Shown piece by piece: positions 49 through 24,863 of a stretch of DNA of 25,447 bases (positions are counted from its first letter, which is position 1; each line of letters starts with the position of its first letter). A program made the position numbers and the translations under genes. The DNA is taken from positions 1 to 25,447 of IMG/VR virus record IMGVR_UViG_3300020235_000430, one strand, 5' to 3'. The notes under the pieces are model-generated. The model was not told the DNA's origin and did no database searches. It worked only from the letters and a program-made list of their open reading frames with translations. This stretch comes from a virus. Lineage: Duplodnaviria; Caudoviricetes.

Positions 49-945
49 ATGGCCTACGTGAACATCATGGACGCGAGCTTCCGGGCCGCGTTCGAGGAAC
101 GACAACTCGCACCCGTCCAGGCGACACCTACACCCTTCGACGGATGGAACCGCTGCTGCGGAGACGACGGTGGCAGAGTGGGGCTGGCCAAGGGCTGGCT
201 CACGATTATCGGGGGCAACCCGAAGTTCGGGAAGAGCATCCTGGCTCTGGCGATGGCCGCCAGGGCGATGATGGAGGGGGAGACGGTCGGGTTCATCTCG
301 CTGGAGATGAAGGCCCCCGCGTTAGCTGCTCGCCTCTACTCCATCATGACGAGCACCCCGATCTGGAAGCTGGAGAAGGTGGGCTTCACGGAGGCCCACT
401 TCAGGAAGGTGTGGAAGGACATGGCCCCTCTGCAAAACGAGCACAACTTCCTCGTGAACGACGACCGGATGTACGAGTTGAAGCTGGTGCAGGCGGCAGT
501 CGAGGACATGCGGCAGGACGGGGTCGAGTGGCTGGTGATCGACTACCTCCAGCTTTGCAGCCTGGGCGACGACAAGAAGATCAACCAGGCTGTCGGGGAG
601 ACCACCAACTGGCTGCACGCCTTCGCCCGTGAGACGGAGACGACGGTCATCGCGCTGTCACAGTTTAACCGCGAGACCAGCAAGAACTACCACGACACCC
701 CGATGCCCCAGGGCCTCCACGGCGGGATGATTATCGAAGCGACCGCCGACCAGATCATGCTGATCGACCACAGCCGCTTCGAGCGGACGAGGAAGAGCGG
801 ACGCACCTGGCTCGTCCTGACGAATCGGCACGGGCCCCACGGTGAGGTGCCCATAGAGTGGAACTACGACACCCTCCGCTGCCGGGAGCAGGAGCCCCAC
901 GAGGAGGGGACCTGGCCTGGTGAGAAAAAGGTGAAGAAGCCATGA
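49..945 (+). CDS. dnaB: DnaB-like (SF4) replicative helicase, ATPase domain only
   Basis: Walker A GGNPKFGKS, H1a FISLEM, Walker B LVIDYLQL, H3 IALSQFNRE, H4-like IEATAD and arginine-finger-like NRHG. Confidence 0.9.
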   Translation: MAYVNIMDASFRAAFEERQLAPVQATPTPFDGWNRCCGDDGGRVGLAKGWLTIIGGNPKFGKSILALAMAARAMMEGETVGFISLEMKAPALAARLYSIMTSTPIWKLEKVGFTEAHFRKVWKDMAPLQNEHNFLVNDDRMYELKLVQAAVEDMRQDGVEWLVIDYLQLCSLGDDKKINQAVGETTNWLHAFARETETTVIALSQFNRETSKNYHDTPMPQGLHGGMIIEATADQIMLIDHSRFERTRKSGRTWLVLTNRHGPHGEVPIEWNYDTLRCREQEPHEEGTWPGEKKVKKP

Positions 946-1538
946 GCCCGAAGCCACCGATCAAGCCTACACGCCGGAGCCGTGGCGAGGGGCCAGACGA
1001 GACCCTCCGGGACATCCAGAAGTCGTGGGCCCGACATGACGGCCTACCCCCACGGTCGCGGCTCACTGGCCACCTGGACCTCGGAGCCGATGAGCTTTTG
1101 CAGAGAACCAGCGCCATGCTCCCGAAGGAGAGGCGCGATCACCTGGAGGAGTTGAGTGGCCAGCCGCCGAAGGAAGAAGAAGCCCCCTCTGGAGAACGCA
1201 GAGGACAGCTACTGCCGGAAGACGTACCGGACGGTGGGGTGCAGCGTGGTGACCTTCAGCCAGCCCCGGAGGACGAAGCAGACGCCGGGGATCGCGGACC
1301 TCCTGGTGTTCGACGCTCGCTCCGGGACTTTCTGGTGGCACGAGGTGAAGAGGCAGCAGGGGGAGGAGTGGCTGAAGGTGGGTCACGGGCAGACGCCGGA
1401 GCAGGAGGTCTTCCAGAAGCTCGTGGAGGCGTTCGGGATGACGTACATCCTGGGGAGCCGGGAGGCGATGTTCGAGAGGCTAAAAAAGATCGGAGTGCTG
1501 ACCTGACCGACGACGAAGTGGACTGGCTCCTGGGATGA
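942..1538 (+). CDS. Hypothetical protein whose ORF encloses the VRR-NUC gene
   Basis: ATGA overlap with the helicase stop at 942-945 and with the next start at 1535-1538; codons look GC3-rich in this frame at 942-1155 and 1507-1538, but not in between. Confidence 0.55.
   Translation: MSPKPPIKPTRRSRGEGPDETLRDIQKSWARHDGLPPRSRLTGHLDLGADELLQRTSAMLPKERRDHLEELSGQPPKEEEAPSGERRGQLLPEDVPDGGVQRGDLQPAPEDEADAGDRGPPGVRRSLRDFLVARGEEAAGGGVAEGGSRADAGAGGLPEARGGVRDDVHPGEPGGDVREAKKDRSADLTDDEVDWLLG
1156..1506 (+). CDS. VRR-NUC family PD-(D/E)XK nuclease, putative Holliday junction resolvase
   Basis: Motif TPGIADLLV...WHEVK...QTPEQEVFQ matches the VRR-NUC pattern (PG.PDL...EVK...lt..Q); GGAGG RBS at 1145-1149 before the GTG start. 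Confidence 0.8.
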   Translation: MASRRRKKKPPLENAEDSYCRKTYRTVGCSVVTFSQPRRTKQTPGIADLLVFDARSGTFWWHEVKRQQGEEWLKVGHGQTPEQEVFQKLVEAFGMTYILGSREAMFERLKKIGVLT

Positions 1539-1996
1539 GCTTCGACGACGACAAACGCCACCTGGAGAGGCAGACGTTCTGCCTCCGGGCGTTCAGCAGA
1601 CGCTACGGTCTCACGTTCGACGAGGATCTCCCCAAGTTGAGCCACTTCGATGCGTTCCTGTTTGCAGACGGGGAGCGGCTGGCGCTCTGCGAGTTCAAGG
1701 GGCGGAAGAACAAGCACGACAGCTACGTGTGGGGCGGCGAGACGGAAGGGGTCGTCTTCTGTCGGGTGGACAAGTACGACTGGATGGCCGAAGCTGAGGG
1801 TGAGCACGGGCTCAAAGGACTCTTCGTCTACGGGTACGACGACGGCCTCTTCTGGATCACCAAGGCGGACGTGCCCACGGGCGACGTGAGAACCCTGAAC
1901 GGCAGGGATGGTGCGGTGCCAGCGTACTTCTTTCCGGCCAGGCTGCTGATCGCGGCGTACCTCGCCCCCTGGAGATACGGACCAGCACGACGATGA
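1535..1996 (+). CDS. Putative PD-(D/E)XK nuclease-fold protein
   Basis: FDAFL...LCEFKGRK resembles a D...ExK catalytic motif; ATGA coupling at both ends. Confidence 0.55.
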   Translation: MSFDDDKRHLERQTFCLRAFSRRYGLTFDEDLPKLSHFDAFLFADGERLALCEFKGRKNKHDSYVWGGETEGVVFCRVDKYDWMAEAEGEHGLKGLFVYGYDDGLFWITKADVPTGDVRTLNGRDGAVPAYFFPARLLIAAYLAPWRYGPARR

Positions 1997-2391
1997 ATAT
2001 GCACACCGGCATGTACATCCTCGACGACCTGAACAAGGTGATCGGCCCCGTGCCGGTGGAGGTCTGGGGCCCGTGGTTCGAGTCGGCCAGCACGACGCGG
2101 AGGCGCGTCGTAAGGCGTGAGGCTTACGCCACCCACGGGGAGGAGACCATCGAGGTCTCGACGGTCTTCCTGGGCCTCTGTCACCGCTGGAGCGACGATG
2201 GGCCCCCGCTCGTCTTCGAGACGATGGTCTTCGGTGGGCCTGATGACGGCGACATGTTCCGCTGCTGCACCTGGGACGAGGCCCTGGCCCAGCACAACGA
2301 GGTAGCAGAGCGCGTGCTCTCGGAGTACGGGGAAGCAGACGGACTCACCCTGGAGCAGCGTAGGGTGCTGGATACGATCCCGACTAAGTGA
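1993..2391 (+). CDS. Phage hypothetical protein
   Basis: ATGA-coupled start; the VSTVFLGL.H...PPLVFETMVFGG block resembles a recurrent phage hypothetical family (from recall). Confidence 0.8.
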   Translation: MNMHTGMYILDDLNKVIGPVPVEVWGPWFESASTTRRRVVRREAYATHGEETIEVSTVFLGLCHRWSDDGPPLVFETMVFGGPDDGDMFRCCTWDEALAQHNEVAERVLSEYGEADGLTLEQRRVLDTIPTK

Positions 2392-2575
2392 GCCAGGTTA
2401 GCAGGGCGACCACGATAATGAGGCCCAGGGCGAGGAGCTTCCCGGTGTTGCTCCGCACCACGTTCGTGACCCGCCTGACCTTCAGCTTCCAGAGCGGATC
2501 CGTCGTCCAGTGATCGGGGTCGGGCTCCGGGAGTTCATCCCCCGGCTTCCACCCGTCATGCGTCGGCTTGCCCAT
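2384..2575 (-). CDS. Small membrane protein, holin candidate
   Basis: C-terminal hydrophobic stretch LLALGLIIVVALLTWL preceded by basic residues; AAGGAGG RBS; last gene of the late operon, two genes after the endolysin. Confidence 0.6.
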   Translation of the reverse strand: MGKPTHDGWKPGDELPEPDPDHWTTDPLWKLKVRRVTNVVRSNTGKLLALGLIIVVALLTWLT

Positions 2576-2813
2576 CTGCTGCCTCCTTGGCCGCCTCCCA
2601 CGACGCCACGATGTTCTCGATGCCCACCGCGACGACCGGACTCAGCCGCTCGTAGTTACCCTCGACCTGGAGCCACTCCTTCGCTCCCGCCACGGCACTG
2701 GCGAACAGCACCTGGCCGACCGTCTTCCCAGCTATGTCTGACACCGGCATGTTGCCTACCCTCCAGAGTGCGCGAAAGAATGTCTTTGCTGCGATTCTCT
2801 TTTCACGAGCCAC
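2556..2813 (-). CDS. Hypothetical protein in the lysis region
   Basis: Fills the gap between the endolysin stop (2815) and the membrane-protein gene; GTG start. Confidence 0.6.
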   Translation of the reverse strand: MAREKRIAAKTFFRALWRVGNMPVSDIAGKTVGQVLFASAVAGAKEWLQVEGNYERLSPVVAVGIENIVASWEAAKEAADGQADA

Positions 2814-2814
2814 C

Positions 2815-3192
2815 TCAGTGTCGGCTCTTCCCGATCCACATCACGTCCTGGGGGAAGCCGTCCTCGGCGCTGTTCACGTCACCGTGGACGTGGCCGCCCT
2901 TGTGCCTGACGCCCTCGATAGCATAGTACACGCCGATCCGCTTGAACTCGGCATGGAGCAGGCCCTCCACGATGCGGATGCGGTCGGCTGAGGTCTCACA
3001 CCGGATGTCAACGGCCTTCCCCAGGTGGTGGGACTTGCCGTCGCCCTTCTCTCTCCAGTCGCTCGAAATGTGGAACGGGATCCCGGAGAACTCGCGGGCC
3101 ACGTCGAGTTTCGCGATAAGCTCCTGGTCCATCTTATCGGGGTGCTTGAACTCGCTCGTGCTGAAGTACGTACTGGTCTCGAAAGACGCCAC
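2815..3192 (-). CDS. Peptidase M15-family zinc peptidase, probable endolysin
   Basis: YF...EF...MD.ELI.KLD..R...GIPF.ISS..R, SHH.GKAVDI and HVH.D zinc-site pattern. Start moved to GTG 3192, which has GAGGT upstream and directly follows the stop at 3195. Confidence 0.85.
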   Translation of the reverse strand: MASFETSTYFSTSEFKHPDKMDQELIAKLDVAREFSGIPFHISSDWREKGDGKSHHLGKAVDIRCETSADRIRIVEGLLHAEFKRIGVYYAIEGVRHKGGHVHGDVNSAEDGFPQDVMWIGKSRH

Positions 3193-3194
3193 GA

Positions 3195-6100
3195 CTACCT
3201 CACTGACTGAAGGGCTGCTCGCACGTCGCTGGCCCACGACTTGGTCCGCCCATCGTTCGCGTTCATGTAGCGGCGGATCCGGCTGGACAAGTTACCGATA
3301 ACCGCCTGCTGCTGCTCGTTGTCCAAGCGCCTGAAGCCTGCGCTCCTGAACAACTGAACGACGGCCCCTTCGATCTCCGGCCCCTGGGTGCGCGTCTCCT
3401 CTCGGTGCTCCTCCCGCGTCTGGCCACGACCGGAGGCGGCCACGGGGACACGGAGGTCTGCCTCGGCCAGCGAGGCTTTTACGCCCGTCTGAGGGATCTC
3501 GCGGGGCACCGTGGGACTGAGGGCGGCGCTGGCTCCGAGCGGGATGCGCTCCCCGAACACGTCGAGCTTCGCCGGCACCATCCGCGAGACTCCGGGGATC
3601 CGGCGCATCATGCCGAAGGCCGCCGTCTCCGCCAGGTTGTCGCCCACGGTCTCCCGGAGGTACCCGTCCGAGAGGATGGCGAGGTCGGACATGATCGTGG
3701 GGATCAGGCTCCCGGTCTGCGAAGAGACGAAGCGGTCGGAGTACGTACCCCCGGACATGATCGCCTTGTTGATCTCGTTGATGCCGCGCATGAAGCTCTG
3801 CTCCAGGAACATCCTGCCGGCACCCTGGGCAGCAGCCATCGAGCCAGCCGTCGCACCCTGCTCGCTCACGTCCTGGAAGGTCTGGGCACCGTACCCCAGG
3901 AGGTTGCCGAACGGAGCCATGCCCGTGAGGGAGTGCCAGTTGTCACCGATGCGGACGGCGTAGGGGACCTTGCCGTGCTGCTGCCACTTCTGGCGCTCCG
4001 CGTTGCTGGCCGGCATCGCTCCGGTGGCGAGGCCCTTGGACGCGAGCCACGCACCCATGGCCATGACCCCCGCTCCGGTGGCCGCTCTGCTACCAGCCGT
4101 GACGAACTCCTTCTGGAGTTGCCGAAGCTCCGCCAGGTCCCGCATCGTGATGTTGCCGTTCTCTGCAAGCAGCACCTGGATGCGGTTACCGGCGACCCGG
4201 AGGTTCTTCGCTTTCAGGACCGTGTTCACGGGACCGAGAGGCCCACGCTCGATGAAGAAGCGCGTTAGCAGAGACGACGGCGTCCGGCGGAACGGCGCGA
4301 CCCAGCCGAAGGCGAAGCGGGCCAGGTGGCCAGCGACCCGGTGGTCGATCCTGGAGTCGAGCCTCCACGAAGAGAAGGTGCGGTCGAGGGCGGACATCAT
4401 CTCCGCGATCTTCGTCCTGTTAGCGAAGACCCGATCCACCGACTGACGCACGGCCTCGTCGATCATCTCGGGATGCGGGTCGTCCACGAGCGCCTGCTTC
4501 GCCGCCGCCCTACGGTTCTCCGGGAGGTGCCTGGTGAAGAGTTGGGCCTGCTCGTCGATAGCTCCCCAGAACGCCGCGAACCTGTACACCGCATCGTAAC
4601 CGCCCTGCAAGTCGAAGATCCAGGAGACGGTACGGCCCACCATGCTGTCGCGGTCCAGCCTGCCGGACTGGATCTCGTCCCACTTCCTCGCGATGACATC
4701 TCCTTCGATGCCCGCTTCCATGCCCTGGCTGAAGTCCTCTCCGTTGATGAGGACGCGCTTCGCCTTCTTCGCCCCCTCCCACGCTCCCTTGGACGCGGCC
4801 TTCGCTCGTGCGACCGGCGTGAAGATCGTCGAGCGGAACTCGGTGCCCACGCCCACGTCCACCTCCACGCCCTCGGCTCCACGTCGGGTGACTGTCCGGG
4901 GCACCTTCCTGACCCCGGAGACGAAGGGGGCAACGAAGCGGTCGAGGACCGTGGCCATCGCGCGCTCCGGCCCCTCCTCCAGGATGGCCTCGACGGTGTT
5001 CGAGAGGATGTTCCTGCCCATCGTCTTCACGCCCGTTAGCAGGCCGGCGCGGCGGACCTGAATAATCTTGTCGAGGATCCCAGCCTCACCGGACAGCGAA
5101 GTCGCCAGGTCCGACATGGCGCGGTTGTCGCCGGACTGCATCTTCTCCAGCGCCTCGTTGAAGAGGAGCTTCTCCTGCTGGGTGAGGTCCGGCATGGGGT
5201 TCCGGTTGCGGAGAAGAGCGGTGTCCCCAGCGCGTCCGATGTTATGGCCGGAGGCGATGGCTTTGATCTTCCGCATCTTCAGCATCCAGTAGAACGGATC
5301 CGCTGATGCCGTGGACATCGCCCGGAGCGAGTTCAGGGTGCGGCCAGCCTCGGACGCCCCGCGCACGAAGGCGGCCACGTAGGACTCGTTCTGCTTCTCC
5401 ATCAAGAGCATCGACCGTTCGATCTCGTCGGCCTCGTCGAGGAGTTGCTCCGCCCGCTTCGTCCCGATGGAGCGCGAGTCCACCTCGTCGAGGATCTGAC
5501 TCATCCGAGCACTCGCGTTGAATATCTTGTCCCGGTTCGAGACGAAGTTCCCCCGGAGCGCCATCAACTCGACCGAGTCCAGGTTCGTCCGCTTGGCCGC
5601 CCCCGCCAGGTCGTCCACGCCCATGTCCCTGGCTGCTGCACGCAGGGCGTCGTGGGTCTTCGTCACCGCCTCCGGGACCATGCCAGTGGCCAGCAACTCG
5701 TCGTAGGTGTCCTCGAAGGCCATCTGCGCCTCGATGTCATCCGACACCTTCGTGTACTGGACCTGGTGCCCCTCCGGCTTCGGCACTCCACGCACGACCT
5801 TGCGGGCACCGGCCCTGGGACCCGTGATGCCCTCCAGGGGCATGTCCTCGACCCGCGTGTTGCGGGCCTCGATCTCGGCCCTGGCCATCTCGGCCTTGGT
5901 GGCGGGCACCGGCCCCTCCGGCATGTCCCGTCCCACCCTGATGAGATCCTCAGCGTCTGACCGCTCCATGCCACCGGCCACCAGGTTGTCGATGGACTTC
6001 TGCTCAGAGATGGTCCTCGCTGCCTCATCGACCTCTGAGATGCGCCTCTCGGGCTCCACGCGGCGCTCTGCGCCCTCGAACACCTCTCCCCTGGCCCGTC

Positions 6101-6914
6101 TCTCTATTCCACGCTCCGTGCGCCCCTTGCCCTCACTGGCGAGGTCTGCGGGAGACTTCGGCGGGTCGGCCACGAACTCAGCGTCACTCACGCCCGAGTC
6201 GCCCTTCTTCCTCCGGGCCCTGGACCTCGCGATGCGGGCACCGATGATCTCCATGACCCCGCCGAGTGCGATGTCGATGCCCACCTCGGACGCGATGCGG
6301 ATGGCCGGGTTCTCCATGGCCTCGATGATCCGTTCGCGGGCCTCTGAGTCCTCGGGGAGGAAGTGAGCGAGCGCGGCTGCGGTGGACGCCTCGGGCCCAC
6401 CAGCAGCCTGGACCCCCGCAGCGGGCACACCGGCCACCATGTTCCCCAGGCGGGTGGTCGCCATGCCCGTCCGACCCACGATGTTCGGGGCCACGGGGCG
6501 AGCGAGGCCGGCGAGTCTGCTAACCCGCCCGATCTTGCCAGCAGAAGTGATCGCGCCCACGGTGCCGAGCACGCCAGCCGTCTCCGCACCCAGCCGGGAG
6601 ATGAAGGCCAGGGGCTTGTTCGCCTTGAACCCCACCCGGCTGAGTTCGCTCGACTGGTCTGCAAGCTCCTGCTGCATGGACACGAGCCAGTCGGGCTCGA
6701 AGTCCTCCGGGAGCATCATCCGGCCCACGCCCGCGACACCTGCGCCCATGGACGTGACGAACGCGGCTGGACCGGAGCCAGCGGCCACGAGGGCGTCGGC
6801 CAGGAAGTTCGTCCCCTTCCGCCGACGACGCATGTACAGCGCCTCGCGGAAGTTGCGCGCCGAGAGGCCGAGCCTTACCCGCTCGTCTAGTTCAGCCCTG
6901 AGTTCGGGATCCAC
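3195..6914 (-). CDS. Large internal virion / DNA ejection protein (1239 aa)
   Basis: Very long Ala/Gly/Arg-rich, apparently helical protein with hydrophobic Gly-rich segments; last and largest of three genes after the nozzle, as T7 gp16 is. Function inferred from synteny. Confidence 0.7.
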   Translation of the reverse strand: MDPELRAELDERVRLGLSARNFREALYMRRRRKGTNFLADALVAAGSGPAAFVTSMGAGVAGVGRMMLPEDFEPDWLVSMQQELADQSSELSRVGFKANKPLAFISRLGAETAGVLGTVGAITSAGKIGRVSRLAGLARPVAPNIVGRTGMATTRLGNMVAGVPAAGVQAAGGPEASTAAALAHFLPEDSEARERIIEAMENPAIRIASEVGIDIALGGVMEIIGARIARSRARRKKGDSGVSDAEFVADPPKSPADLASEGKGRTERGIERRARGEVFEGAERRVEPERRISEVDEAARTISEQKSIDNLVAGGMERSDAEDLIRVGRDMPEGPVPATKAEMARAEIEARNTRVEDMPLEGITGPRAGARKVVRGVPKPEGHQVQYTKVSDDIEAQMAFEDTYDELLATGMVPEAVTKTHDALRAAARDMGVDDLAGAAKRTNLDSVELMALRGNFVSNRDKIFNASARMSQILDEVDSRSIGTKRAEQLLDEADEIERSMLLMEKQNESYVAAFVRGASEAGRTLNSLRAMSTASADPFYWMLKMRKIKAIASGHNIGRAGDTALLRNRNPMPDLTQQEKLLFNEALEKMQSGDNRAMSDLATSLSGEAGILDKIIQVRRAGLLTGVKTMGRNILSNTVEAILEEGPERAMATVLDRFVAPFVSGVRKVPRTVTRRGAEGVEVDVGVGTEFRSTIFTPVARAKAASKGAWEGAKKAKRVLINGEDFSQGMEAGIEGDVIARKWDEIQSGRLDRDSMVGRTVSWIFDLQGGYDAVYRFAAFWGAIDEQAQLFTRHLPENRRAAAKQALVDDPHPEMIDEAVRQSVDRVFANRTKIAEMMSALDRTFSSWRLDSRIDHRVAGHLARFAFGWVAPFRRTPSSLLTRFFIERGPLGPVNTVLKAKNLRVAGNRIQVLLAENGNITMRDLAELRQLQKEFVTAGSRAATGAGVMAMGAWLASKGLATGAMPASNAERQKWQQHGKVPYAVRIGDNWHSLTGMAPFGNLLGYGAQTFQDVSEQGATAGSMAAAQGAGRMFLEQSFMRGINEINKAIMSGGTYSDRFVSSQTGSLIPTIMSDLAILSDGYLRETVGDNLAETAAFGMMRRIPGVSRMVPAKLDVFGERIPLGASAALSPTVPREIPQTGVKASLAEADLRVPVAASGRGQTREEHREETRTQGPEIEGAVVQLFRSAGFRRLDNEQQQAVIGNLSSRIRRYMNANDGRTKSWASDVRAALQSVR

Positions 6915-6917
6915 TCA

Positions 6918-8162
6918 TCACCTTCCCAGGATGGCGTCTGCAAACTGCTCCGGCGTGTTGGCATCGTCGAAGATGTTCTTCTGCCAGTTGAAGCCCCCAC
7001 GGCCCGGACGGTTCCCCGCGTCGGCCCAGTCGAGGCGCTCCCACACCTCGGCTGCACGGCTGATGAAGTACGTGCGGATGAGACGGATGGCCCCCTCGTT
7101 GTTTGCAGTCGCGGCCAAGACCTCATCGCGGATCGAGGGAGCCTCCCCGGTGTCGTCGAGCACCCTGGCCCACCACTTCTCCATCTGATCCTCATCGACA
7201 GCGTGCGAGCCAGCCGCGAGTGCATCCTCGGACATGGTCGCGAGATCCTCGGGACCCGTCTCCGCCTCGACGGCGGTCATGGTGTCCTCCACCCTCTGCG
7301 TGATCCTACGACGCAACTCGTTGTAGCGTTCGAGATCCTCGGGATCCTCGGGGGGACCCTCGAAGCCGAACCTGCTAAACATCTCGGTGTCCACCTGCTC
7401 CAGGACCCGTGCTGCGCGCTGGCGGGCCGCGACGTTGTCCGGGCCCCTCTCGCGGGGTCCAGCACGGTCGTACCTCTCGCTGTACTGGTCGAGGGCGATC
7501 TGGGCGAGCACGACCTCGTCGGGCTGGCCTTCAGTGCGCTCCGCGTTGTCCGCACGGTAGGCAGTGATGAGGGCCGCCTCGTCGGGCGAGATGCGTGCCT
7601 CAGCCTCGTCCGACCGCTCCTGGGCCAGGCGCTGGTTCATGAGGTTCGAGAAGGCGTACCTCTGGTCCCCTGACTCCAGGATCTGAACGTCGTCCGGCAT
7701 CGCGGGCGTGCCTTCCGGGATGATGGCGCGACTCTCCCAGGTGACCTCCCGACCCTGGGCCTCCGGCTGCGGGCCAGTGGTCGGCTCGATGCCAGCCTCC
7801 GGGATCCCCGGCATCTGGACGGCACCCTGGGGCTGGGGCTGCATCCCGAATCGGGGCTCGCTGATCCTGTCGGACACGCCGCCCTCCTTGAGCGCACGCG
7901 CCAGCGTCATGTCGGCAGGCGTGGAGCCCTCCGGGATCGGACGCGCACCGATGTCAGCCAGCTTCAACTGCCGGTCGAGGTTGGCCTGCTCGCGGTCGTA
8001 GACGCGCTGCTCCGCCCGCTCTGCAAACTCCGTCATCCGGGCCTCGTGCTCCTGCTGGGCACGCTGCTGCTCCTGCCCGCCGAGCACGAGGTTGTACCCG
8101 CGCTGGAAGGCCCTCTCGAACGTGTCGTCCCGCTGGGGGAGTACCGAAGGGCGGAAGGTCAT
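6918..8162 (-). CDS. Putative internal virion / ejection protein (414 aa)
   Basis: Glu/Gln/Arg-rich, coiled-coil-like N-terminus; TAATG overlap with the upstream gene; middle position in the ejection trio. Confidence 0.6.
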   Translation of the reverse strand: MTFRPSVLPQRDDTFERAFQRGYNLVLGGQEQQRAQQEHEARMTEFAERAEQRVYDREQANLDRQLKLADIGARPIPEGSTPADMTLARALKEGGVSDRISEPRFGMQPQPQGAVQMPGIPEAGIEPTTGPQPEAQGREVTWESRAIIPEGTPAMPDDVQILESGDQRYAFSNLMNQRLAQERSDEAEARISPDEAALITAYRADNAERTEGQPDEVVLAQIALDQYSERYDRAGPRERGPDNVAARQRAARVLEQVDTEMFSRFGFEGPPEDPEDLERYNELRRRITQRVEDTMTAVEAETGPEDLATMSEDALAAGSHAVDEDQMEKWWARVLDDTGEAPSIRDEVLAATANNEGAIRLIRTYFISRAAEVWERLDWADAGNRPGRGGFNWQKNIFDDANTPEQFADAILGR

Positions 8163-8773: not shown

Positions 8774-8785
8774 CCTACCACTCCA

Positions 8786-9316: not shown

Positions 9317-9362
9317 TCCTTATCTCCGATGAGACCTTCGCGGTAGTCCGGCGTGCCGGTCA
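9303..9362. repeat. 13-bp direct repeat GGCGTGCCGGTCA (9303-9315 and 9350-9362)
   Basis: Read directly; encodes (V)TGTP near the end of the 759-aa ORF and (M)TGTP at the start of the 176-aa ORF. Confidence 0.9.
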
Positions 9363-15307: not shown

Positions 15308-15322
15308 GGTGCCCCCTGATCG

Positions 15323-16299: not shown

Positions 16300-17162
16300 G
16301 GCGTGTACTGCGGCCTGGTCTGAGTCACCGACAAGTCACCGCGACCCTCACCCTGGACGGGCGACGGGCGGTACTCAGCCTGCAAAGTCCCCTCGGTCGA
16401 GACTGCCGCGCCATCGCTCCTTGCAGAGACGACCAGAAGGTCCGTGTCTCCACGCCCGTCGAGCACCCGCATCCCAGCCGGGTCCTTGATGGTGAGCCCG
16501 GTCAACAAGGCGTTCGCCGCCTGCGGATCCGTGCCCACGACCAGGGCAGCGTTGAGGCCACCCAGATCGAACGTGTTGAAGTTGGCCACGATGCCGTCGT
16601 TCGTGTTCGTCGTGCCCGCAGTGAAGTCACCACCAACCGCTTCGAGCGTCAGGATGCCGATGACACCCTCGGAGCCATCACCGACCACCTGGGGACACGC
16701 ACGGAGCGCGTCTTCCTCGGTGGCGAAGGCCATGATTCCAGAAGGCGCGATGGTGATAATGGTCTGGCCCGAGTCGATGGTGACGAGCCACACTCCCCAC
16801 GTACCGTCGAGCACAACCTCGGTGCCCGAGAACGCCTGGGCCGCCGTGGCCGCGAGACGGGTGAGCACCCCGACAAGGTTCTGCCAGAGAGCTTCGATGG
16901 CGAAGGTGACGGCAGCAGCCACAGCGAACTGCGGGCTCCCCACCACCCCGTTGTCCTGGACCGCCTTGGCCCGAAGGTTGATGTCCGCCGTGGCGATGAC
17001 ACGAGCGTAGGCGGAAAGGTCCGAGACCCGGTAGTTGTAGCGGGGCTGCTTCACGTAGATGGGCTCGTCCTCATCTGCGTTCGCAGGGTCCGCGATGACC
17101 GCGTTGGCGGCCTTCTTCAGAAGCTCCGCGTCCCGGTGAACATTCCTGTCCTGAATGGCCAT
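16296..17162 (-). CDS. Putative capsid decoration / minor head protein
   Basis: Directly downstream of the capsid gene; Ala/Thr/Gly/Val-rich. Start moved to ATG 17162 because of a strong AGGAGG RBS just upstream. Confidence 0.6.
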   Translation of the reverse strand: MAIQDRNVHRDAELLKKAANAVIADPANADEDEPIYVKQPRYNYRVSDLSAYARVIATADINLRAKAVQDNGVVGSPQFAVAAAVTFAIEALWQNLVGVLTRLAATAAQAFSGTEVVLDGTWGVWLVTIDSGQTIITIAPSGIMAFATEEDALRACPQVVGDGSEGVIGILTLEAVGGDFTAGTTNTNDGIVANFNTFDLGGLNAALVVGTDPQAANALLTGLTIKDPAGMRVLDGRGDTDLLVVSARSDGAAVSTEGTLQAEYRPSPVQGEGRGDLSVTQTRPQYTP

Positions 17163-17196
17163 GGTGGCCTCCTGCTGAGGTTGACATAGATGTGGA

Positions 17197-17222
17197 CCTG
17201 GGGGGCTCACCGGCCCCCCAGG
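17197..17222 (-). terminator. GC-rich hairpin downstream of the major capsid gene (attenuator or mRNA stabiliser)
   Basis: Perfect 10-bp inverted repeat CCTGGGGGGC / GCCCCCCAGG with a 6-nt loop; no U-tract follows. Confidence 0.55.
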
Positions 17223-17240
17223 CTACCCACCGGCTGTCGA

Positions 17241-18605
17241 TCAGAACGACGCGCTCAAGCCGTCGATGCGGACGTTCTTCCTGGGCGCAACACAGAAGAG
17301 TTGCTCGTACATCACGCCGGTCGCGTAGAAGGCATCCTTCCGCCCCGTGGCATCCGTTACGCGGTTCCAGATGGATCCGGTCCGGTCATCCCACTCCCAC
17401 GAGTTCAGCGTGAGCCGACGCCAGGTGTCGTTCTGCAAGCAGAAGACGACCTCGGGCGGCAGCTTACGAGCGACCTTCAACATGACGGTGCGGTCACCGA
17501 GAACGATTTCCACATGTCCCTTCCCGCCCGCGTACTGGCCACGGGGGTCGTTGAAGATCCGATCACCCTTCAGGCTCTGCCAGTAACCACGGCAGGCGGC
17601 CCGCGATGCGACGACGCAGTCGATGCGTCCAGCACCCTTCACCGCGACCTCATCGTCCGCGAAGACGAGAAGCTCCTCGGTGAGTTGTCCACCCCAGACG
17701 GCGTCGGAGCCGTCGATGACGATGGACCTCCACAGGCGGTTCCCGCTCGCCGTCCGGTCGATGTTGTTGTACGTGGAGACGATCCCACCGTCGTCCGCGC
17801 CAGCCATCAACCCGGCGATCTCGCGGTCGTCACCAGACGACGCCTGCACTGCGGAGTTACCGGCACCGTCACCAGCGACGATGTACAGTCCGGCACCGTC
17901 CGCCACCCAGGCGTCGATGGTGGCCTCAACACCCGAGAACGTCAGGAGGGCCGAATCCTCGTCGATGTCGATGAGGGTCAAAGCCTGCGCCGTCCCAGGG
18001 TTCAGGATGGCGCTGTCGTCCAGCGGGCCTGCGGCTGCGAGAGCGACACAGCCCTCACCTTCCATGAACTGCAAGAAGGCGTCGGTGAACCCATCCACCC
18101 CAACGGAGCGGTCCACGACCACCGACATGGTCGAGGAACTGAGCTTCGTGGGGGTGGCTGCGGCTCGCGCCTTCACCCCGGCACCGAAGCCGATGTACAT
18201 CCGGTCGATCTCGTTCACCAGACGGGTGACGAGGTCGGGGAGAGCCCTCTCCATGTAGTTGATGAAGGCTCCCTCATCGCCCACGACACGACGCATCGTG
18301 TCACCCGTCATCTCGACGGTTCCCTGAATCTTCTTCAGGAAGAGGCGGCTGTTCTTGAAGACCGGGTCATCCGCCTCGGGGATGTACTCGTTCTCCAGAC
18401 GCGCACCAACACCAGCAGGAAGCTGGAAGTAGTGCGCCATTTCCACGAAACGACCGCCCGTCGTGTTGTCGTTCTGGACGTTCATGTCGGTCTGGAAGAT
18501 CGACATCAACTCCGTGTCCTCGACGATGTTCACGATGAGGGGATCCGAGAAGATGACCTTCATCGCCTCGGTGATCGCATCAGTGGTCGTGGTGATGCTG
18601 GGCAT
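17241..18605 (-). CDS. Major capsid protein (HK97 fold expected)
   Basis: Follows scaffold and portal; 454 aa; motifs GVGARLENEYIP, KKIQGTVEMTG and C-terminal Y.QLFC..PR.N.RI.GL typical of phage coat proteins; GAGGT RBS. Confidence 0.85.
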   Translation of the reverse strand: MPSITTTTDAITEAMKVIFSDPLIVNIVEDTELMSIFQTDMNVQNDNTTGGRFVEMAHYFQLPAGVGARLENEYIPEADDPVFKNSRLFLKKIQGTVEMTGDTMRRVVGDEGAFINYMERALPDLVTRLVNEIDRMYIGFGAGVKARAAATPTKLSSSTMSVVVDRSVGVDGFTDAFLQFMEGEGCVALAAAGPLDDSAILNPGTAQALTLIDIDEDSALLTFSGVEATIDAWVADGAGLYIVAGDGAGNSAVQASSGDDREIAGLMAGADDGGIVSTYNNIDRTASGNRLWRSIVIDGSDAVWGGQLTEELLVFADDEVAVKGAGRIDCVVASRAACRGYWQSLKGDRIFNDPRGQYAGGKGHVEIVLGDRTVMLKVARKLPPEVVFCLQNDTWRRLTLNSWEWDDRTGSIWNRVTDATGRKDAFYATGVMYEQLFCVAPRKNVRIDGLSASF

Positions 18606-18628
18606 GACCTTACCTCTGGATCAGATGA

Positions 18629-19921
18629 TTAGCGGTTCAAGAGAGCAGCCAAGCCGCGCTTGCGGACTTCCTCGACCCTCTGCTTGAGATTCTGACCCGG
18701 AGGCAGTTTGCTGGCTTCGGTCGGCGCTGCGTGCTTCCCCGGTCCGGGGGCTGCGGCGACTTTCTTCCGCTTCTTACTGGCCTTCACGAGTTGCTTGCCG
18801 GTCTTCGGCTTCGCCTTGGACTTCTTCCGAGTCGAAGGTTTGCCACGGAGCCGCTGCCCGTTGTCCTTCAGGGCCTTCCTGGCGTCGAGCGGGTCGATCC
18901 CGTTCAACTCCAGCCGTTCTGCTACGATGGTCGGTAGGTCTTTCGCCTCCAGGGTGAGCAGCTTGTGGCGGTTGATGTGATCCACCACGTCTCGCGTCAC
19001 GTCTGCAAGCAACCTCGTCCTACGACCCTCTTCCATCTCGTCGGGGATCATCCTTTCGATCCCCTCCCGGAGCGTGGCAGCGTTCTTGTTCTGCGCTGTC
19101 CGGTTTGCCCTCGCCTTCTGGAGAGCCTCCCTCGTCTCAAACCGAGCAGCCTTCGCCTCGGCCTGTAGAGTTCTAAGTGCTGAGGGCTCTTCGAGCAACT
19201 CCTGCACGGTCTCCTTCAGGGCGTCCCAGGCACCTGGCGCGGTCATCAGCGCGAGGGCCACCTGGGGGAGATGCTTCTCTTCGATGTGCTCCAGGACGAA
19301 GCCAGCCGGGTCCACCCCGAACTGCTCTTCGATCTCGTAAAGCTCTTCCTGGGCGGCCTGGATCTCCGAGAGGCCGGTGCGGTACGCCTCGCCCCGCATG
19401 AACCCGTTCTTGAGTTGGTTCAGCCTCTCGGCGGTCTCCTGGTCATCGACGACTATTTCGAGGTCGTCGTCGTCGGGGCCACGTCCGGGGATGGAGACCG
19501 TGATCTCCTCCTCCTCCTTCTCCTCCTCCTCACCGTCCCCCTCGGACTCGTCGGACTCGTCTCCCGCTTCTGCCCCGGACTTGTCCTCGTCGTCGTCCTC
19601 GTGCTCGTCGGACCCTTCATCGTCGTCCTCTAGTAGCTCTTCATCGAGCCCGAGCCCTTCCCCTTCGGCGGACTCGTCCTCATCGCCGGGACGTTCATCT
19701 TCATCCCCTGACCCGTCGCCGCTACCGGAGCCTTGATGCTGCTCCCCTTGAGCGGAGAGTTCGTCGAAGTCGCTCCCCCGCTGGTGACGTGACTCATCGT
19801 CGTCTCCCTTTTCGAGTTGAGCCCTCGCCTGCGCGAGAGCTTCTTTGATGCCGAACTTGCCCCCTGCTCCGCCGCTGTCCTCGGTTCCCTCGCCTTCGAG
19901 GTTTTCAGACTCGTCTGGCAC
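18629..19921 (-). CDS. Capsid scaffolding protein
   Basis: Between portal and capsid; very acidic low-complexity N-terminus, helical core, Lys-rich C-terminus; GGAG RBS and GTG start. Confidence 0.75.
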   Translation of the reverse strand: MPDESENLEGEGTEDSGGAGGKFGIKEALAQARAQLEKGDDDESRHQRGSDFDELSAQGEQHQGSGSGDGSGDEDERPGDEDESAEGEGLGLDEELLEDDDEGSDEHEDDDEDKSGAEAGDESDESEGDGEEEEKEEEEITVSIPGRGPDDDDLEIVVDDQETAERLNQLKNGFMRGEAYRTGLSEIQAAQEELYEIEEQFGVDPAGFVLEHIEEKHLPQVALALMTAPGAWDALKETVQELLEEPSALRTLQAEAKAARFETREALQKARANRTAQNKNAATLREGIERMIPDEMEEGRRTRLLADVTRDVVDHINRHKLLTLEAKDLPTIVAERLELNGIDPLDARKALKDNGQRLRGKPSTRKKSKAKPKTGKQLVKASKKRKKVAAAPGPGKHAAPTEASKLPPGQNLKQRVEEVRKRGLAALLNR

Positions 19922-19934
19922 GTCCTACTCCTGC

Positions 19935-22274
19935 TTACTGAGGTAGAGGCGGTGGGCCCAGAGGTGACTCACCCTGGCTTCCAGGAAGAGCCCCAGGACC
20001 GGGGGCGACTTCGGATGATGTAGCATCAGGCCCTCCGCCGCCACCTCCGCCGCCCGTTCCACCCTCCAGCGGTACACCCCCTGGGGGTGGTGCCATCTCG
20101 GCGGCCTTCATCTGGATGTTCATGATGTGCATCTGCCGGTGCATGACGAACTGCTGCTGCACGACGGGGTCGAGTTCGAGGAACTCCGGCGACGACATGA
20201 ACTCCTCGTGGCTCATCAGGTGGACCAGATCGTCGTACCACTCGAACACCGGGATCTCCATCGCGGGGACCCCCTGGAGCATCTTGCCGTTCTCTTGGTC
20301 GGCAGTGATGCGGTGGATCCCCCCGAACTTCCCGGCGCGGCCCAGGTGCGGGAACCGCGATAGCTCGAAGAAGGCGTTCGTCGCTGCCGGGGTCCCTGGC
20401 GGTCCGAAGAGCCCGTTGGCGTACAGGGCGGTGATGTTCTTCTGGCGCTCGCCTCGGCCCTCGGGCAGCATCGACTCCACGTCGGCCTGCACGTTTACAG
20501 AGGCGCTCTCGAAGAGGTCCGGGTAGACCATGATGGTCCGGGCGACGTTGTCCTCACCCGCGTAGGCGAGGATGTCCTCTTCGTCGTAGAGCGCCGGGAA
20601 GATCACGATCCAGTCTTCGACCATGCGACCGAACTCCTCGGCTGCTCGACGCATCGTCGGCCCCAGGAAGCGGTCGGAGTTGAAGCGAAGCTCCTTCACG
20701 AGTTCGCCCGAAGCGTCCTCGGTCGGGGCCGCACCCTCTGTCCCCACCAGGTTGCCGAGTTCGTCGATCTCCTGCCTCAAGAACTCCAGCGTCCGGTACA
20801 CGTCCGGGGACAGTGGGGGCGGTGCGACCCACTCGAACGGCGGGATGTTCGCCCGTCTCGTGACCTTCAGCCCCAGGCCCGGACGGTTCGTCACCTGTCG
20901 CTCGTTCAGGCCCGACTGGGCGTCGATGATCTTGATCGGATTCGTCGAGAGGTTGGTGTGCTCCAGCAGCCCGGCAGCGGTCTTGTTGTACATCCGCTGA
21001 GGCTGGTTCATGGCCTCCTGGGGGGTCGTGCCTCCAGCGGGGCGTCCGGGAAGGCGGACGAACTCGAAGCGCCTGATGGGCGACGTGTACGGGTAGGCCA
21101 GTGGGCGCGGCGAATCGTGCAGGCACTTCTCCCGCGTGACCACGAGCAGCCGTCCACCGGGCTGCTTGGGACCCTCCTCCATGCCCGCGAACGGAGCGGG
21201 TCGGTGCCAGAGCGTGAAGACCTCCACGGTGGGCTCCGGGATGACGACGTTCGTGCTGAAGTCGCTGCCGATGGTGTTCGGATCAGCCGCGCCGAAGTAC
21301 CCCGAGCCGTAGATGAACCGCTCCAGGATTCCGGTGTCGGAGCCGCCCTGGTTCGGGACCTGGTACCCCTCGACCTTGATGCCGTACAACTCGAAGATTT
21401 CGTTCGTGGTGTGGAACGTCCGGGTCATGTGCCAGGACTTCTCGTGCCACGGGTCGGGGCCCCACTCACCGCGCACCTGGACGGCGTTGAGAACCTGCAC
21501 GTCGAGGTCTCCCCTCCGTTCGACGTGGGCCCCCTCGGGACCGACAGGTTCCCCGGAGTCGTCGAACTGCGGCTTGCCCTCCGCGCTGAAGCCGATGTTC
21601 CCGTCGAGGCCATCCAGGGCTTGGACCTGTTCCTCCGTGAGCCCCTCCATGTCCTCCTCGCCTGCCTGCCCCTCGAACGTGACGAAGTCGCCCTTCCGCA
21701 GGTTAATCGTACTCTGGAGGTACGTGGTGCCCGCAGGGATGAGCCAGGCGCTCGCCCGGTCCCACACCTCGGCCATGTTGATCTCCCGCCACTTCTTCTT
21801 GAAGATCACGTCGAGGGTCGCGGCCAGCATCGCGTCGTCCCGATCCGGCCCTGGCACGAACGTGACGATGGGCGGGTTCTCGGTCATGCGGGCGTGGGTG
21901 ATGATGAACCACGGGAGCAGCCGGTTGAAGACGGGCCGCTGCCGCCACTTCTTCTCGTCGGTGGTCATCCACCGGGTCACGTCGATGAAGCGACCCAGGC
22001 GCGGGTTGAAGACGCTCCACTGCTGCCCGGAGAGCATCCTGATGTTCTCTTCGATCTGACGGTCCCGCCTGCGAACCGAGTCGTCCTGGGAGTCCCACAT
22101 GTAGGTCGCCCAGGTGATGCGCTTCCGGTCGTCGTCGTCGGACTCCCCGTGGCCGTCCTCGGAGGGCTGTCGGATGTCCGGGATGTCGTCGAAGTCGAAC
22201 GCCTGGCCACCCGGAGAGAGGGCCACTGTGGGACTGCCCTTCATGCCCCCGAAGCGTGAGGAACTGAGGGCCAT
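19935..22274 (-). CDS. Portal protein
   Basis: 779 aa; EN.RML.GQQW, PVFNRL, ENPP...PG..RDD..A, Q.MYNK, H..H.EF segments and a Pro/Gly-rich tail typical of P22-like portals; upstream of scaffold and capsid; GGAG RBS. Confidence 0.88.
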   Translation of the reverse strand: MALSSSRFGGMKGSPTVALSPGGQAFDFDDIPDIRQPSEDGHGESDDDDRKRITWATYMWDSQDDSVRRRDRQIEENIRMLSGQQWSVFNPRLGRFIDVTRWMTTDEKKWRQRPVFNRLLPWFIITHARMTENPPIVTFVPGPDRDDAMLAATLDVIFKKKWREINMAEVWDRASAWLIPAGTTYLQSTINLRKGDFVTFEGQAGEEDMEGLTEEQVQALDGLDGNIGFSAEGKPQFDDSGEPVGPEGAHVERRGDLDVQVLNAVQVRGEWGPDPWHEKSWHMTRTFHTTNEIFELYGIKVEGYQVPNQGGSDTGILERFIYGSGYFGAADPNTIGSDFSTNVVIPEPTVEVFTLWHRPAPFAGMEEGPKQPGGRLLVVTREKCLHDSPRPLAYPYTSPIRRFEFVRLPGRPAGGTTPQEAMNQPQRMYNKTAAGLLEHTNLSTNPIKIIDAQSGLNERQVTNRPGLGLKVTRRANIPPFEWVAPPPLSPDVYRTLEFLRQEIDELGNLVGTEGAAPTEDASGELVKELRFNSDRFLGPTMRRAAEEFGRMVEDWIVIFPALYDEEDILAYAGEDNVARTIMVYPDLFESASVNVQADVESMLPEGRGERQKNITALYANGLFGPPGTPAATNAFFELSRFPHLGRAGKFGGIHRITADQENGKMLQGVPAMEIPVFEWYDDLVHLMSHEEFMSSPEFLELDPVVQQQFVMHRQMHIMNIQMKAAEMAPPPGGVPLEGGTGGGGGGGGPDATSSEVAPGPGALPGSQGESPLGPPPLPQ

Positions 22275-22275
22275 G

Positions 22276-22515
22276 CTACTCTCCAGTCAGTGTGATGGGG
22301 GCTCCGGTGCGGATCGCCGGGATAAGCTGCTCCACCTGGGCGTAGGGAAGCGTGGAGAGCGTGTCGAGCGTGGCCTTCCAGACCTCGATGGGGATCGCGA
22401 CGTGGGTCGGGGATCCCGACTTGGCGACCTCGACTGCTGGAGTCGCTCCGTTCGGTGTGGCCTTGGTCTTCTCCTTCTCAAGTCCCTCGGTCACGCCTGC
22501 CCGTGGCTCGCTCAT
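22276..22515 (-). CDS. Small hypothetical protein (79 aa)
   Basis: Start moved to ATG 22515 (ATGA overlap, GAGG upstream); motif L..LPYAQV..LI..I. Confidence 0.7.
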   Translation of the reverse strand: MSEPRAGVTEGLEKEKTKATPNGATPAVEVAKSGSPTHVAIPIEVWKATLDTLSTLPYAQVEQLIPAIRTGAPITLTGE

Positions 22516-22817
22516 GGGGTCCTCTCTGGTTCGGGCGCACCGGGATCGACAGCCCGGTCGCGGAGCTTCTGTTCGGTGTCCGCCTTCGCCGCGTCGATGT
22601 GGACGAGTTGGTCTTCGAGTTGGTTCGGCAGTTGGTGCGCCTGGTGAGCCAGCATCCTGGTCCGCTGGTCCGGGTCGGTTAGCAGATCCCACATGCCACA
22701 CATGTACCCGAAGAAGCTCACCGGCTCATCAGCTTCGCCGTCGATCTGGATCTCCTGACGGACTATCGTCTGGATCTCCTCCCACTCTGCTGGGTCTGCC
22801 TCGAAGCCTTGGATCAT
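22512..22817 (-). CDS. Hypothetical protein (101 aa)
   Basis: Start moved to ATG 22817 (ATGA overlap with the upstream stop). Confidence 0.65.
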   Translation of the reverse strand: MIQGFEADPAEWEEIQTIVRQEIQIDGEADEPVSFFGYMCGMWDLLTDPDQRTRMLAHQAHQLPNQLEDQLVHIDAAKADTEQKLRDRAVDPGAPEPERTP

Positions 22818-23125
22818 GGGTCGATGTCGGGGTTCACGGTGCCGTAGACGAACTCGAAGTCGATGGAGTCCGGGTCGATGGCCCCGCCTGTTGGGTTGTA
22901 GAGTACCGTGCGTAGCGTGTCGGCGGCAACGACCATCCAAGTGATTAGCAGATCGTCGATAGTCGTCGCGGTCGTGACGGGAGCCCAGGTGATGATGTGA
23001 GTCCCGAGCGCGAGACCGGGCACGTTCGTGTCCACGACCACGGTGCCGTTCGAGCTAACGCTGGGGAAGTCGATGGTGACGCGGGCGACCGTGAGGCCCT
23101 CGAAGATCGTGTCGAGCCTACGCAC
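22814..23125 (-). CDS. Small beta-rich virion-associated protein
   Basis: IDFPSV...VPG...V.AADT.R..LYNPTGGAIDP pattern recalled from phage fibre-associated domains; start moved to GTG 23125 with GGAG upstream. Confidence 0.65.
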   Translation of the reverse strand: MRRLDTIFEGLTVARVTIDFPSVSSNGTVVVDTNVPGLALGTHIITWAPVTTATTIDDLLITWMVVAADTLRTVLYNPTGGAIDPDSIDFEFVYGTVNPDIDP

Positions 23126-24863
23126 CAGTCGTCTCCAGGATGCGCCACCGGGCTGTCGCGCCGTCATACCAGAGCAGCGCGGAATCACCAGGCCCAAGTG
23201 TCAGGTCCGCGCCGGTCGGTGAGATGATCCGGTTCGTGGCCAGACTACCAACGTCTTGATGTCCAAGCACCAGATCGAACGAGCCGATGTTGACGAGTCG
23301 CAACTCATCGTCTGCCTCAGAGAAATCGACTGTCGTAGCGTCGATGCCTGTGATGGTGCGGGAGGCGTCAGTATCCAAGCGCAGCAGACCACGCATCGCG
23401 GTGCCAGAACCCTGTCCCTGATAGTCGTCCTGATCTGCCGTGATCTGAGCAGGACTGATCGGAACGAGAGCGTTGGCTCCTTGCACCTTCGCACGAACGG
23501 TGACTGTGAACGTGAGGCGAGAAGCCTCGTAGATTTGGTTGGCTACGCCGAGCGTGTAGACCCGCAACCGATAGAGCCCAGAGTTGTCTGCGCCTGCACG
23601 TTCAGCCGAGAAGAACGCGATGTTGTTCTTTACGGCAGCATCATCTTCGATGGTCCAGAACAGTGCCGTGCCGAAGCCATCGACCATATCGCCAGACGAC
23701 TGTCCGGTGAGCCTCCACGAAGACAGGAGCAGGTTTACGCTGGATGCGCGGCGAATGAAATCGGAGACTGGGAACCCATCAGCTTCGACCCGCAGCCCGC
23801 CCTCCGGGATGACAACCTTTGCTGGCGTCGGGGCCGAGAAGTGGGGGTTGAGTATGAGATCCGCACCGTCCCAGTACATCGCGGCATCTGGCGACTGGGC
23901 TGAGGCACCAAATCGGATCAGGGCGTTGTCGTTGAAGTGAATGTCACCATCCCCGAAGTCGGACCACGCGCCTCCGGTGTTGAGCAGGAGCCATGCGTCC
24001 ACGGCCACGGTGATGGCGGAGCGGACCGCCGCCTTCTCGACCGCGCCGCCGAAGGGGATCGCGGTCACGTCGAGCCCGTAGTACGCGACCATGGTCTCGG
24101 TCCCAAGGCCCGGCTGGAACAGCCCAGCGGCAGGGTTCTGGGCCCACACCCCCCGGATGATTCCGAAGCTGATCGTGGACCCGGCCACGGTCGAGAACTT
24201 CGGGGACACCGTGAGGGCTGTGTGGTTGGTGACGTTCATGACCGCGCCGCTTACCTGCGTGCGGATGAGGCCCGACCAGTTCACCGCCGTCATGGTGGCT
24301 GTCGTGCGCGTGCCCGCGAAGGGGTTCGTGACTGAGACCCCGGCGTTTACCACCAGGGGATTCAGCGGGTTGTTCCCGGCCCCAGGCCCTGCAAACAACG
24401 CGGGGAGGGCCTGCATGACGGTGTAGGCCGCGAAGCCGGGGTTGACGAGCGTGGTGATCTCTGGAGCACCACGGAAGCTCTCGTAGATGAACGTCGGGTT
24501 GGTGAAACTGATCGTGCCCGAGAAGTTCATGCCGCCACCGACGAAGAGCGCCGTGAACGCCTCGACCGCGTCGTAGTCGAAGCCGTAGGCCGCGAGCGGG
24601 TTGGCGCTGTACGGGCCGAAGATGACCGGGGAGTTGAGCCTGACGAAGCCAGGGTCCGGTCCGGGGTTGCCCGCGAGCGTCAGGTCTTCGGCAGTGTCCG
24701 GCGAGCCGAAAGCGACCTGGCCACCGGCCCGCCCTGCAAGCAGCAGGTACTGGAGGTGGTCGTCGGCTGGCGGCCCCAGGCCCGCGAGCGACGAGTGTTC
24801 GATGGGGGGCTCGAACGGCGGCCCGTCCATCCCCTGCCCAGAAGCCTTCAGCCCCGAGTTCAT
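23118..24863 (-). CDS. Putative fibre / receptor-binding structural protein
   Basis: N-terminal HSSLAGL..DDH.QYLLL.GR.GGQ motif and C-terminal ITADQDDY...SRTITGI...NRI...LWYDG...RWR domain, both recalled from phage fibre-like proteins; start moved to ATG 24863 (TAATG overlap). Confidence 0.6.
   Translation of the reverse strand: MNSGLKASGQGMDGPPFEPPIEHSSLAGLGPPADDHLQYLLLAGRAGGQVAFGSPDTAEDLTLAGNPGPDPGFVRLNSPVIFGPYSANPLAAYGFDYDAVEAFTALFVGGGMNFSGTISFTNPTFIYESFRGAPEITTLVNPGFAAYTVMQALPALFAGPGAGNNPLNPLVVNAGVSVTNPFAGTRTTATMTAVNWSGLIRTQVSGAVMNVTNHTALTVSPKFSTVAGSTISFGIIRGVWAQNPAAGLFQPGLGTETMVAYYGLDVTAIPFGGAVEKAAVRSAITVAVDAWLLLNTGGAWSDFGDGDIHFNDNALIRFGASAQSPDAAMYWDGADLILNPHFSAPTPAKVVIPEGGLRVEADGFPVSDFIRRASSVNLLLSSWRLTGQSSGDMVDGFGTALFWTIEDDAAVKNNIAFFSAERAGADNSGLYRLRVYTLGVANQIYEASRLTFTVTVRAKVQGANALVPISPAQITADQDDYQGQGSGTAMRGLLRLDTDASRTITGIDATTVDFSEADDELRLVNIGSFDLVLGHQDVGSLATNRIISPTGADLTLGPGDSALLWYDGATARWRILETTGA

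Follow-up and report, generated by a model that had tools for sequence, protein, structure and literature searches.

A short asymmetric DNA word accumulated in rare synonymous codons by an uncultured marine phage that is purged of restriction-type sites

Four described systems are closest to the one analysed here. The stoperators of cluster A mycobacteriophages are asymmetric sites of 13–14 bases, present at 20–30 positions in the promoters and short intergenic spaces of temperate phages, mostly oriented with transcription in both genome arms, varying among relatives and having a known repressor (PMC6550527, PMC9283540). Chi is over-represented by phages of the recombinase-positive, inhibitor-negative class (PMC3784561); it stands in a single orientation (20:3 and 32:0) and is clustered in Chi-rich lambdoids (PMC12315714), and variant Chi words occur in related hosts (PMC8022716). 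HIP1 and alternate highly iterated palindromes are repeated inside genes in all frames (PMC4390886). The fourth is restriction-site avoidance in phages. We analyse here a window (the whole stretch of DNA under study) of 25,447 nucleotides from record IMGVR_UViG_3300020235_000430 (Duplodnaviria; Caudoviricetes), an uncultured marine phage in which the word TTGCAG (CTGCAA on the complementary strand) is scattered through the genes. The word resembles stoperators in being asymmetric, spread over the genome and variable among relatives, and perhaps in its orientation with transcription in both arms; it resembles Chi in lambdoids in being short and asymmetric and in belonging to a phage whose recombination module is lambda-like and which has no recognised inhibitor (PMC3784561, PMC12315714, PMC8022716); and like HIP1 it is iterated inside genes in all frames. 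The genome also shares with other phages a purge of palindromes that includes CTGCAG, but such avoidance cannot explain a word that accumulates.

A direct recount gives 32 dispersed copies of TTGCAG/CTGCAA between positions 430 and 24739, 9 on the forward strand (as TTGCAG) and 23 on the reverse (as CTGCAA), with starts identical to those listed in a preliminary description made from the sequence letters. Its other counts also hold: a pyrimidine precedes TTGCAG in 30 of the 32 copies (C in 15, T in 15, G in 2, A in none), CTGCAG occurs 0 times in the window, and the copies use all three frames and both strands, 31 of 32 lying inside called genes with 24 on the coding strand (about 25 had been claimed) and 7 on the template strand. 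The claimed use of rare codons is borne out by TTT, which makes up 14 of the 348 Phe codons in called genes and starts 5 in-gene sites. An order-3 Markov model of the window predicts 5.8 copies, and the hexamer is the top-ranked 6-mer; the two 7-letter forms are TTTGCAG (15 observed versus 0.6 expected) and CTTGCAG (15 versus 2.1). The window is the reverse complement of 25.4 kb within a 51-kb viral record (G001, 99.9% identity) that carries 74 copies of the hexamer, about one per 700 bases. Over these 74 the word proves wider than first stated, with a G two bases upstream in 40 and a purine next in 57, and only about 9 of its positions carry information here. There is also a variant, TAGCAG, with 13 copies in the window (between 2303 and 25176; 7 forward, 6 reverse), all 13 followed by a purine; the whole genome has 23, 21 of them followed by a purine, and 18 lie in genes where 5 are expected.

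The sequence is not an assembly artefact. Nine runs from five marine or subsurface studies (one of which may be the source) contain half or more of the words sampled, and contigs from two studies align with the window in pieces as long as 2.2 kb, most of which show 0–6 differences. Contigs compared for polymorphism at word sites were either near-identical or from other organisms, and no RNA run was listed among those that contain the sampled words. No published description of the word or the phenomenon was found in searches of literature listings that cover mainly freely accessible articles.

Active accumulation, which had been suggested from the raw counts, is supported by protein-preserving shuffles. 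The genes of G001 contain 67 copies, where free synonymous shuffling gives 10.7, and where a shuffle that also forbids 74 purged words gives 12.4 (maximum 17 in 10 samples); the word is about five times commoner than the proteins and the loss of restriction sites account for. Outside the codon-aligned frame there are 50 copies versus 6.2 expected. The base after a dicodon also responds: G comes next after 33 of 34 xTT-GCA dicodons, versus 79 of 133 GCA codons that follow other codons (p = 5e-7). About a third of the available opportunities are realised in each coding frame (31/95, 3/10 and 12/33).

The word might instead be a mere escape product of purged CTGCAG. Escape by synonymous change is possible only for 8 Leu-Gln copies and 2 of the form xxT TGC AG (430 to 18074), whereas 21 copies (1662 to 24739), namely 16 of the form xTT GCA G on the coding strand and 5 of the form xCT GCA A on the template strand, are unreachable from CTGCAG synonymously. 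The argument of the preliminary description that CTGCAG avoidance fits TTG CAG and not CTT/TTT GCA G is therefore sound: 10 of the 31 in-gene copies could be escapes and 21 could not. Three related phages that also lack CTGCAG served as controls; their frame-1 rates are 2/148, 2/182 and 0/139, versus 33/175 in G001. In one of them, G012, there is an excess in the Leu-Gln frame only, and the constrained shuffle reproduces most of it (31 versus 20.6), as escape would predict. Alignment of the sites with 19 relatives gave 280 site-relative pairs, which are not independent of one another; the same hexamer stands in 3 of the 280, and the relatives use ordinary codons at those residues. The residues are the same in 77 pairs, of which 17 have a palindrome, every one at a Leu-Gln site; among the 24 same-residue pairs in frame 1, where escape is impossible, none has the word and none a palindrome. 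We also considered and rejected a shift of the proteome toward Leu/Phe-Ala-Asp/Glu, which is seen in this phage (40 versus 27.1 expected) but equally in a word-free relative (41 versus 26.0). The synonymous shuffle, the use of all frames and the ordinary codons of the relatives agree that the signal is one of DNA and not of protein, as had been proposed. The word has accumulated in a selection-like way, as a DNA site written through rare synonymous codons, independently of the purge and with lineage-specific variants.

The purge extends over the whole window (1 to 25447) and genome. Of the 64 possible six-base palindromes the window lacks 51 altogether, including 27 that would be expected at least 3 times, and palindromic six-base sites number 110 where 485 are expected. 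CTGCAG and the word's other palindromic neighbour are both at zero; the pairing of the word with the absence of CTGCAG in particular thus does not stand, since CTGCAG is merely one of the 27 well-expected palindromes that are missing. Both in the window and in G001, CAAT is absent (0 versus 63 expected in genes), as is GAGCTG (0 versus 51), and several asymmetric 7-mers are likewise at zero. CAAT is scarce also in four sister loci of G001, and one might guess that its purge answers a predicted PD-(D/E)XK endonuclease encoded at 1535–1996 (forward strand, one word copy), which has no homologue in the relatives compared. The purged sets differ yet overlap among related phages, so that specific palindromes are missing and the set varies by lineage. 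Palindrome purging is ordinary restriction-site avoidance, here in an extreme form. In addition, CTAG is strongly depleted and CCWGG in excess in the window, a pattern associated with Dcm methylation and very-short-patch repair.

The arms of early and late transcription meet at 2391–2556, where the majority orientation of the word switches. A check of strand polarity against transcription, which had been proposed, finds in-gene YTTGCAG in the coding sense in 34 of 44 and 12 of 15 copies in the two arms (46 of 59 in total). Opportunities on the coding strand are realised in 46 of 138 cases, those on the template strand in 13 of 114, and all 19 copies of the 9-letter form (19 in 51 kb, about 370 per Mb) have the coding sense. 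Part of the coding-strand bias stems from the protein sequence. Copies are spaced at random (coefficient of variation 1.09) and spread uniformly within genes (p = 0.67), and 7 of 74 lie outside called genes, where the non-coding share of the genome is 6.2%; neither even spacing nor iterons were found. The longest word-free gap, 19009–24388 (5.4 kb), spans the P22-like portal protein gene (19935–22274, reverse strand, no word copies) and is borderline, as about 5% of random-spacing simulations reach its length.

Relatives were gathered with the major capsid protein (17241–18605, reverse strand, two word copies). One group of them, clade B (G004, G006, G007, G008 and G010 plus short loci), retains CTGCAG at about twice expectation and accumulates GGCTGCARA on the coding strand, the G form 47 times versus 1.9 expected and the A form 17 versus 0.8 (four pooled genomes), with weak extra flanks to this 9-mer. 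The top 7-mer is the same in G001 (34 versus 1.4) and G004 (27 versus 4.3). Clade A (G002, G003 and G009) is purged, lacks the word, and has genes for a C5 methylase and a TGT-like protein; its early region (L023:11381-15314) has PAPS-reductase-like, TGT-like and C5 methylase genes, likely a DNA modification cassette. The four loci that are sister to G001, with 82% capsid identity and a combined length of 41 kb, have neither the word nor the purge. In our trees (the portal tree being a quick version) G001 groups with these sisters, outside clades A and B. The word thus marks two lineages, and the trees would fit either one origin with losses and sequence change or two origins.

We infer that a sequence-specific protein reads the word, and the reading we favour, tentatively, is that the copies are sites for a phage-encoded DNA-binding protein which would act loosely like the stoperator repressor system. 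A small phage protein would occupy sites along the entire genome, and its occupancy would either regulate transcription, stoperator-like, or mark and shield the phage DNA. Reader and word would co-evolve, which would explain a TTGCAG core where CTGCAG is purged, GGCTGCARA in clade B and neither in other relatives. What speaks for a phage-encoded reader is that the bacterial genomes tested (below) lack the word, that its excess is far above that of Chi in phages, that it turns over among close relatives and that, like stoperators, it leans with transcription. A more specific version, that this is an undescribed reader-word system in which the genome is coated or marked, at dozens of short sites concealed in codons, by a protein of the phage itself, whose specificity was rewritten once the CTGCAG core became a restriction target, seems to us rather unlikely as stated. 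The protein-binding site was among the candidates of the preliminary description; it is still the best reading, with the reader itself putative.

Several observations weigh against a phage-encoded reader of this kind. The word-positive set is two lineages only. Template-strand copies are in excess too (7 versus 0.45 in one frame), and the clade B excess is similar on the two strands once protein sequence is allowed for (64 versus 2.7 and 12 versus 0.6). The stoperator features of a 13–14-base consensus and a promoter or intergenic location are lacking here: this phage's word has 7–9 bases and 74 copies inside genes, its reverse orientation is also in excess, and it shows no preference for gene ends, with 8 of 74 copies within 30 bases of an end versus 8.2 expected. 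No tyrosine integrase was found in the five records searched (serine integrase and partition genes were not searched by family), so a silenced prophage state is not evident. Finally, the empty host search, made in a phylum to which the host is weakly assigned, lowers the probability of a host-encoded reader only in part.

Candidates for the reader are leads from two lineages and not evidence of binding. Four genes are found in both word-positive lineages wherever the region is present and in no word-free genome, namely an AAA_5 and DUF7192 pair, an acidic 159-amino-acid gene beside the exonuclease, and a 104-amino-acid gene after the terminase. We rejected the AAA_5/DUF7192 pair, as the model of the DUF7192 partner has a vWA/MIDAS-like fold (best Z 7.7, root-mean-square deviation 3.7, 163 residues aligned), which we take to point to a MoxR-type chaperone pair, and as two unrelated loci with the pair show no strongly enriched word. 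The 159-residue protein has a helical predicted model with no clear fold match (best Z 5.2). The 104-residue gene (L020:12344-12658) is present in five word-positive genomes and in no word-free one, and the tail of its product resembles a GroES mobile loop. No repressor of the stoperator kind was identified, and the phage has two small helix-turn-helix (HTH) proteins. The best lead would be the LuxR-type HTH protein (L020:13047-13271, just beyond the window), whose predicted recognition helix is nearly constant in four clade B phages and differs from clade B in G001 and in clade A. Against it, in the word-free outgroups G005 and G011 the LuxR helix resembles the clade B one; nor does the helix of the XRE-type HTH protein track the word.

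An explanation which we consider possible but doubtful is that the word is a Chi-like site for a host AddAB-type helicase-nuclease, stopping degradation and promoting repair of phage DNA ends, including restriction-cut ends. Such a site would be asymmetric, of 7–9 bases and made by synonymous change in all frames, all of which is found here, and the phage has RecT and YqaJ with no recognised Gam or Abc2; a scan of its open reading frames (ORFs) gave no match to either inhibitor, and the acidic 159-residue gene of no assigned function adjoins the exonuclease. Density is of the same order as in the Chi-rich lambdoid LLS (1 per 1.9 kb, versus 1 per 0.7 kb here). However, the orientation of the word flips with transcription and its spacing is random, and the excess of the top 7- and 8-mers, 6- to 60-fold, is far above the Chi median of 2.3–4.8 reported for phages in PMC3784561. 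Relative to the Chi-rich lambdoids, this phage has no single orientation, no clustering, a far higher excess and no matching bacterial excess. What survives of the Chi-like candidate first put forward is a short asymmetric over-represented word, and what does not is a single orientation with clustering at one end.

A Chi site would be over-represented and strand-skewed in the core genome of the host, and the search for such a genome bears on this explanation. The few terminase relatives with an assigned taxon include three Gemmatimonadota-group records, and a portal relative is present in 2 of 401 Gemmatimonadota genomes. The two contigs concerned (G016:C31 and G329:C89) are whole phage genomes in circular form, terminally redundant and free of host genes, and the assignment to a Gemmatimonadota host is weak for that reason. 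An AddAB-type nuclease domain was found in 106 of 201 Gemmatimonadota genomes, many as large-protein pairs, but in neither of the two bins, both incomplete genomes, that hold relatives. No dense or enriched chromosome appeared among the bacterial genomes tested (301 counted, 10 by fragments; the tallies over 301 and 201 genomes include the unpublished G073, G113, G173 and G197, and no conclusion depends on these four by themselves). The idea that the word might fingerprint its host thus failed among the 301 Gemmatimonadota genomes: none is dense, the 9-letter form reaches at most 34 per Mb versus about 370 in G001, and the clade B pattern at most 18 per Mb. Fragments of the 10 high-count genomes gave no consistent excess (in G030, for example, the top 7-mer is 1.1-fold over 460 kb). 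The higher counts in some Gemmatimonadota genomes were rejected as a fingerprint, being due to lower G+C content or depleted controls.

It is likewise unlikely, in our judgement, that a modification or defence protein of the host acts on the word, in which case marked or bound sites would protect the DNA in cis and the phage would profit from many copies. In its favour, the word accompanies an extreme purge both here and in clade B, both strands show the excess, and the word-free clade A encodes the C5 methylase and TGT-like protein instead; moreover, a mobile defence system may leave host composition unmarked. On the other hand clade A and G012 are equally purged and yet without the word, and the known methylation-based defences select against their own sites. 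Beside these we note two possible counter-defence genes, for an Acb2/Tad1-like hairpin protein (L020:5787-6140) and a MazG-like protein (L020:1948-2280).

A role in mRNA, or in the non-template strand while genes are transcribed, as a pause, anti-termination or RNA-binding site, would suit the higher share of opportunities realised on the coding strand and the exclusively coding sense of the 9-letter form; we think it improbable, as template-strand copies are also in excess, position in genes is uniform, and TAGCAG is no rarer on the template strand than on the coding strand (11/96). No more probable is the HIP1 model, in which a methylase with biased mismatch repair makes the word without selection (PMC4390886). 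The word does have a GC step in its core; but it is non-palindromic, which removes the defining feature of the HIP1-like candidate raised earlier, its 4-base core is not in excess (58 versus 65.7), it is seen in no bacterial genome tested, and the ORFs scanned in the phage include no methylase match. Unlike HIP1, the word lies in a phage and not in candidate hosts and has no cognate methylase among those ORFs. That it is a primase recognition site for lagging-strand priming is very improbable: there is about one copy per kb, a DnaB-like helicase is present and the NrS-1 primase-polymerase uses an 8-base site (PMC8718748), but no primase match was found among the ORFs scanned, spacing is random rather than even, and word-free relatives have the same kind of helicase. 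Least credible of all is mere escape from CTGCAG, which the constrained shuffle and the unreachable copies refute as the main cause.

No close cultured phage was found (one weak match). The window begins with the DnaB-like helicase (49–945, forward strand, two word copies) and a small endonuclease (1156–1506, forward strand) with weak matches to endonuclease and resolvase families; past the convergence of the arms lies a large internal virion protein (3195–6914, reverse strand, three word copies), and the further products of the window are nucleases, an endolysin and internal virion proteins. Beyond the window G001 encodes RecT, YqaJ, a replication-initiator-like protein, the two small HTH proteins and the AAA_5/DUF7192 pair. 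Both of its ends are inside one PAPS-reductase-like gene, so the record is probably nearly complete. The internal virion protein slot is variable among the relatives, with a zeta-toxin-like kinase domain in G002 and GGDEF plus LPD38 in G006 (L024:7178-12889 and L035:13948-18966). An ORF of 914 amino acids (L020:6990-9734), ahead of the lysis and terminase genes, has no family match and no homologue in the relatives. Of the 30 differences between the window and G001, 26 fall in three patches (15826–15978, 23790–23802 and 25115–25306), which suggests that the patches may derive from recombination between strains; one patch abolishes the word copy at 15903, which is among the two that lack a 5' pyrimidine.

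Although restriction pressure on this phage is very heavy, it uses rare codons to place one word about 70 times, which suggests that phage infection involves a protein-DNA interaction not recognised before. The family is a natural experiment, in which one lineage carries one word, a clade carries a related one and close relatives carry neither. Should the reader prove to be a host enzyme, an uncultured marine lineage would have its first motif of the Chi-like or defence type.

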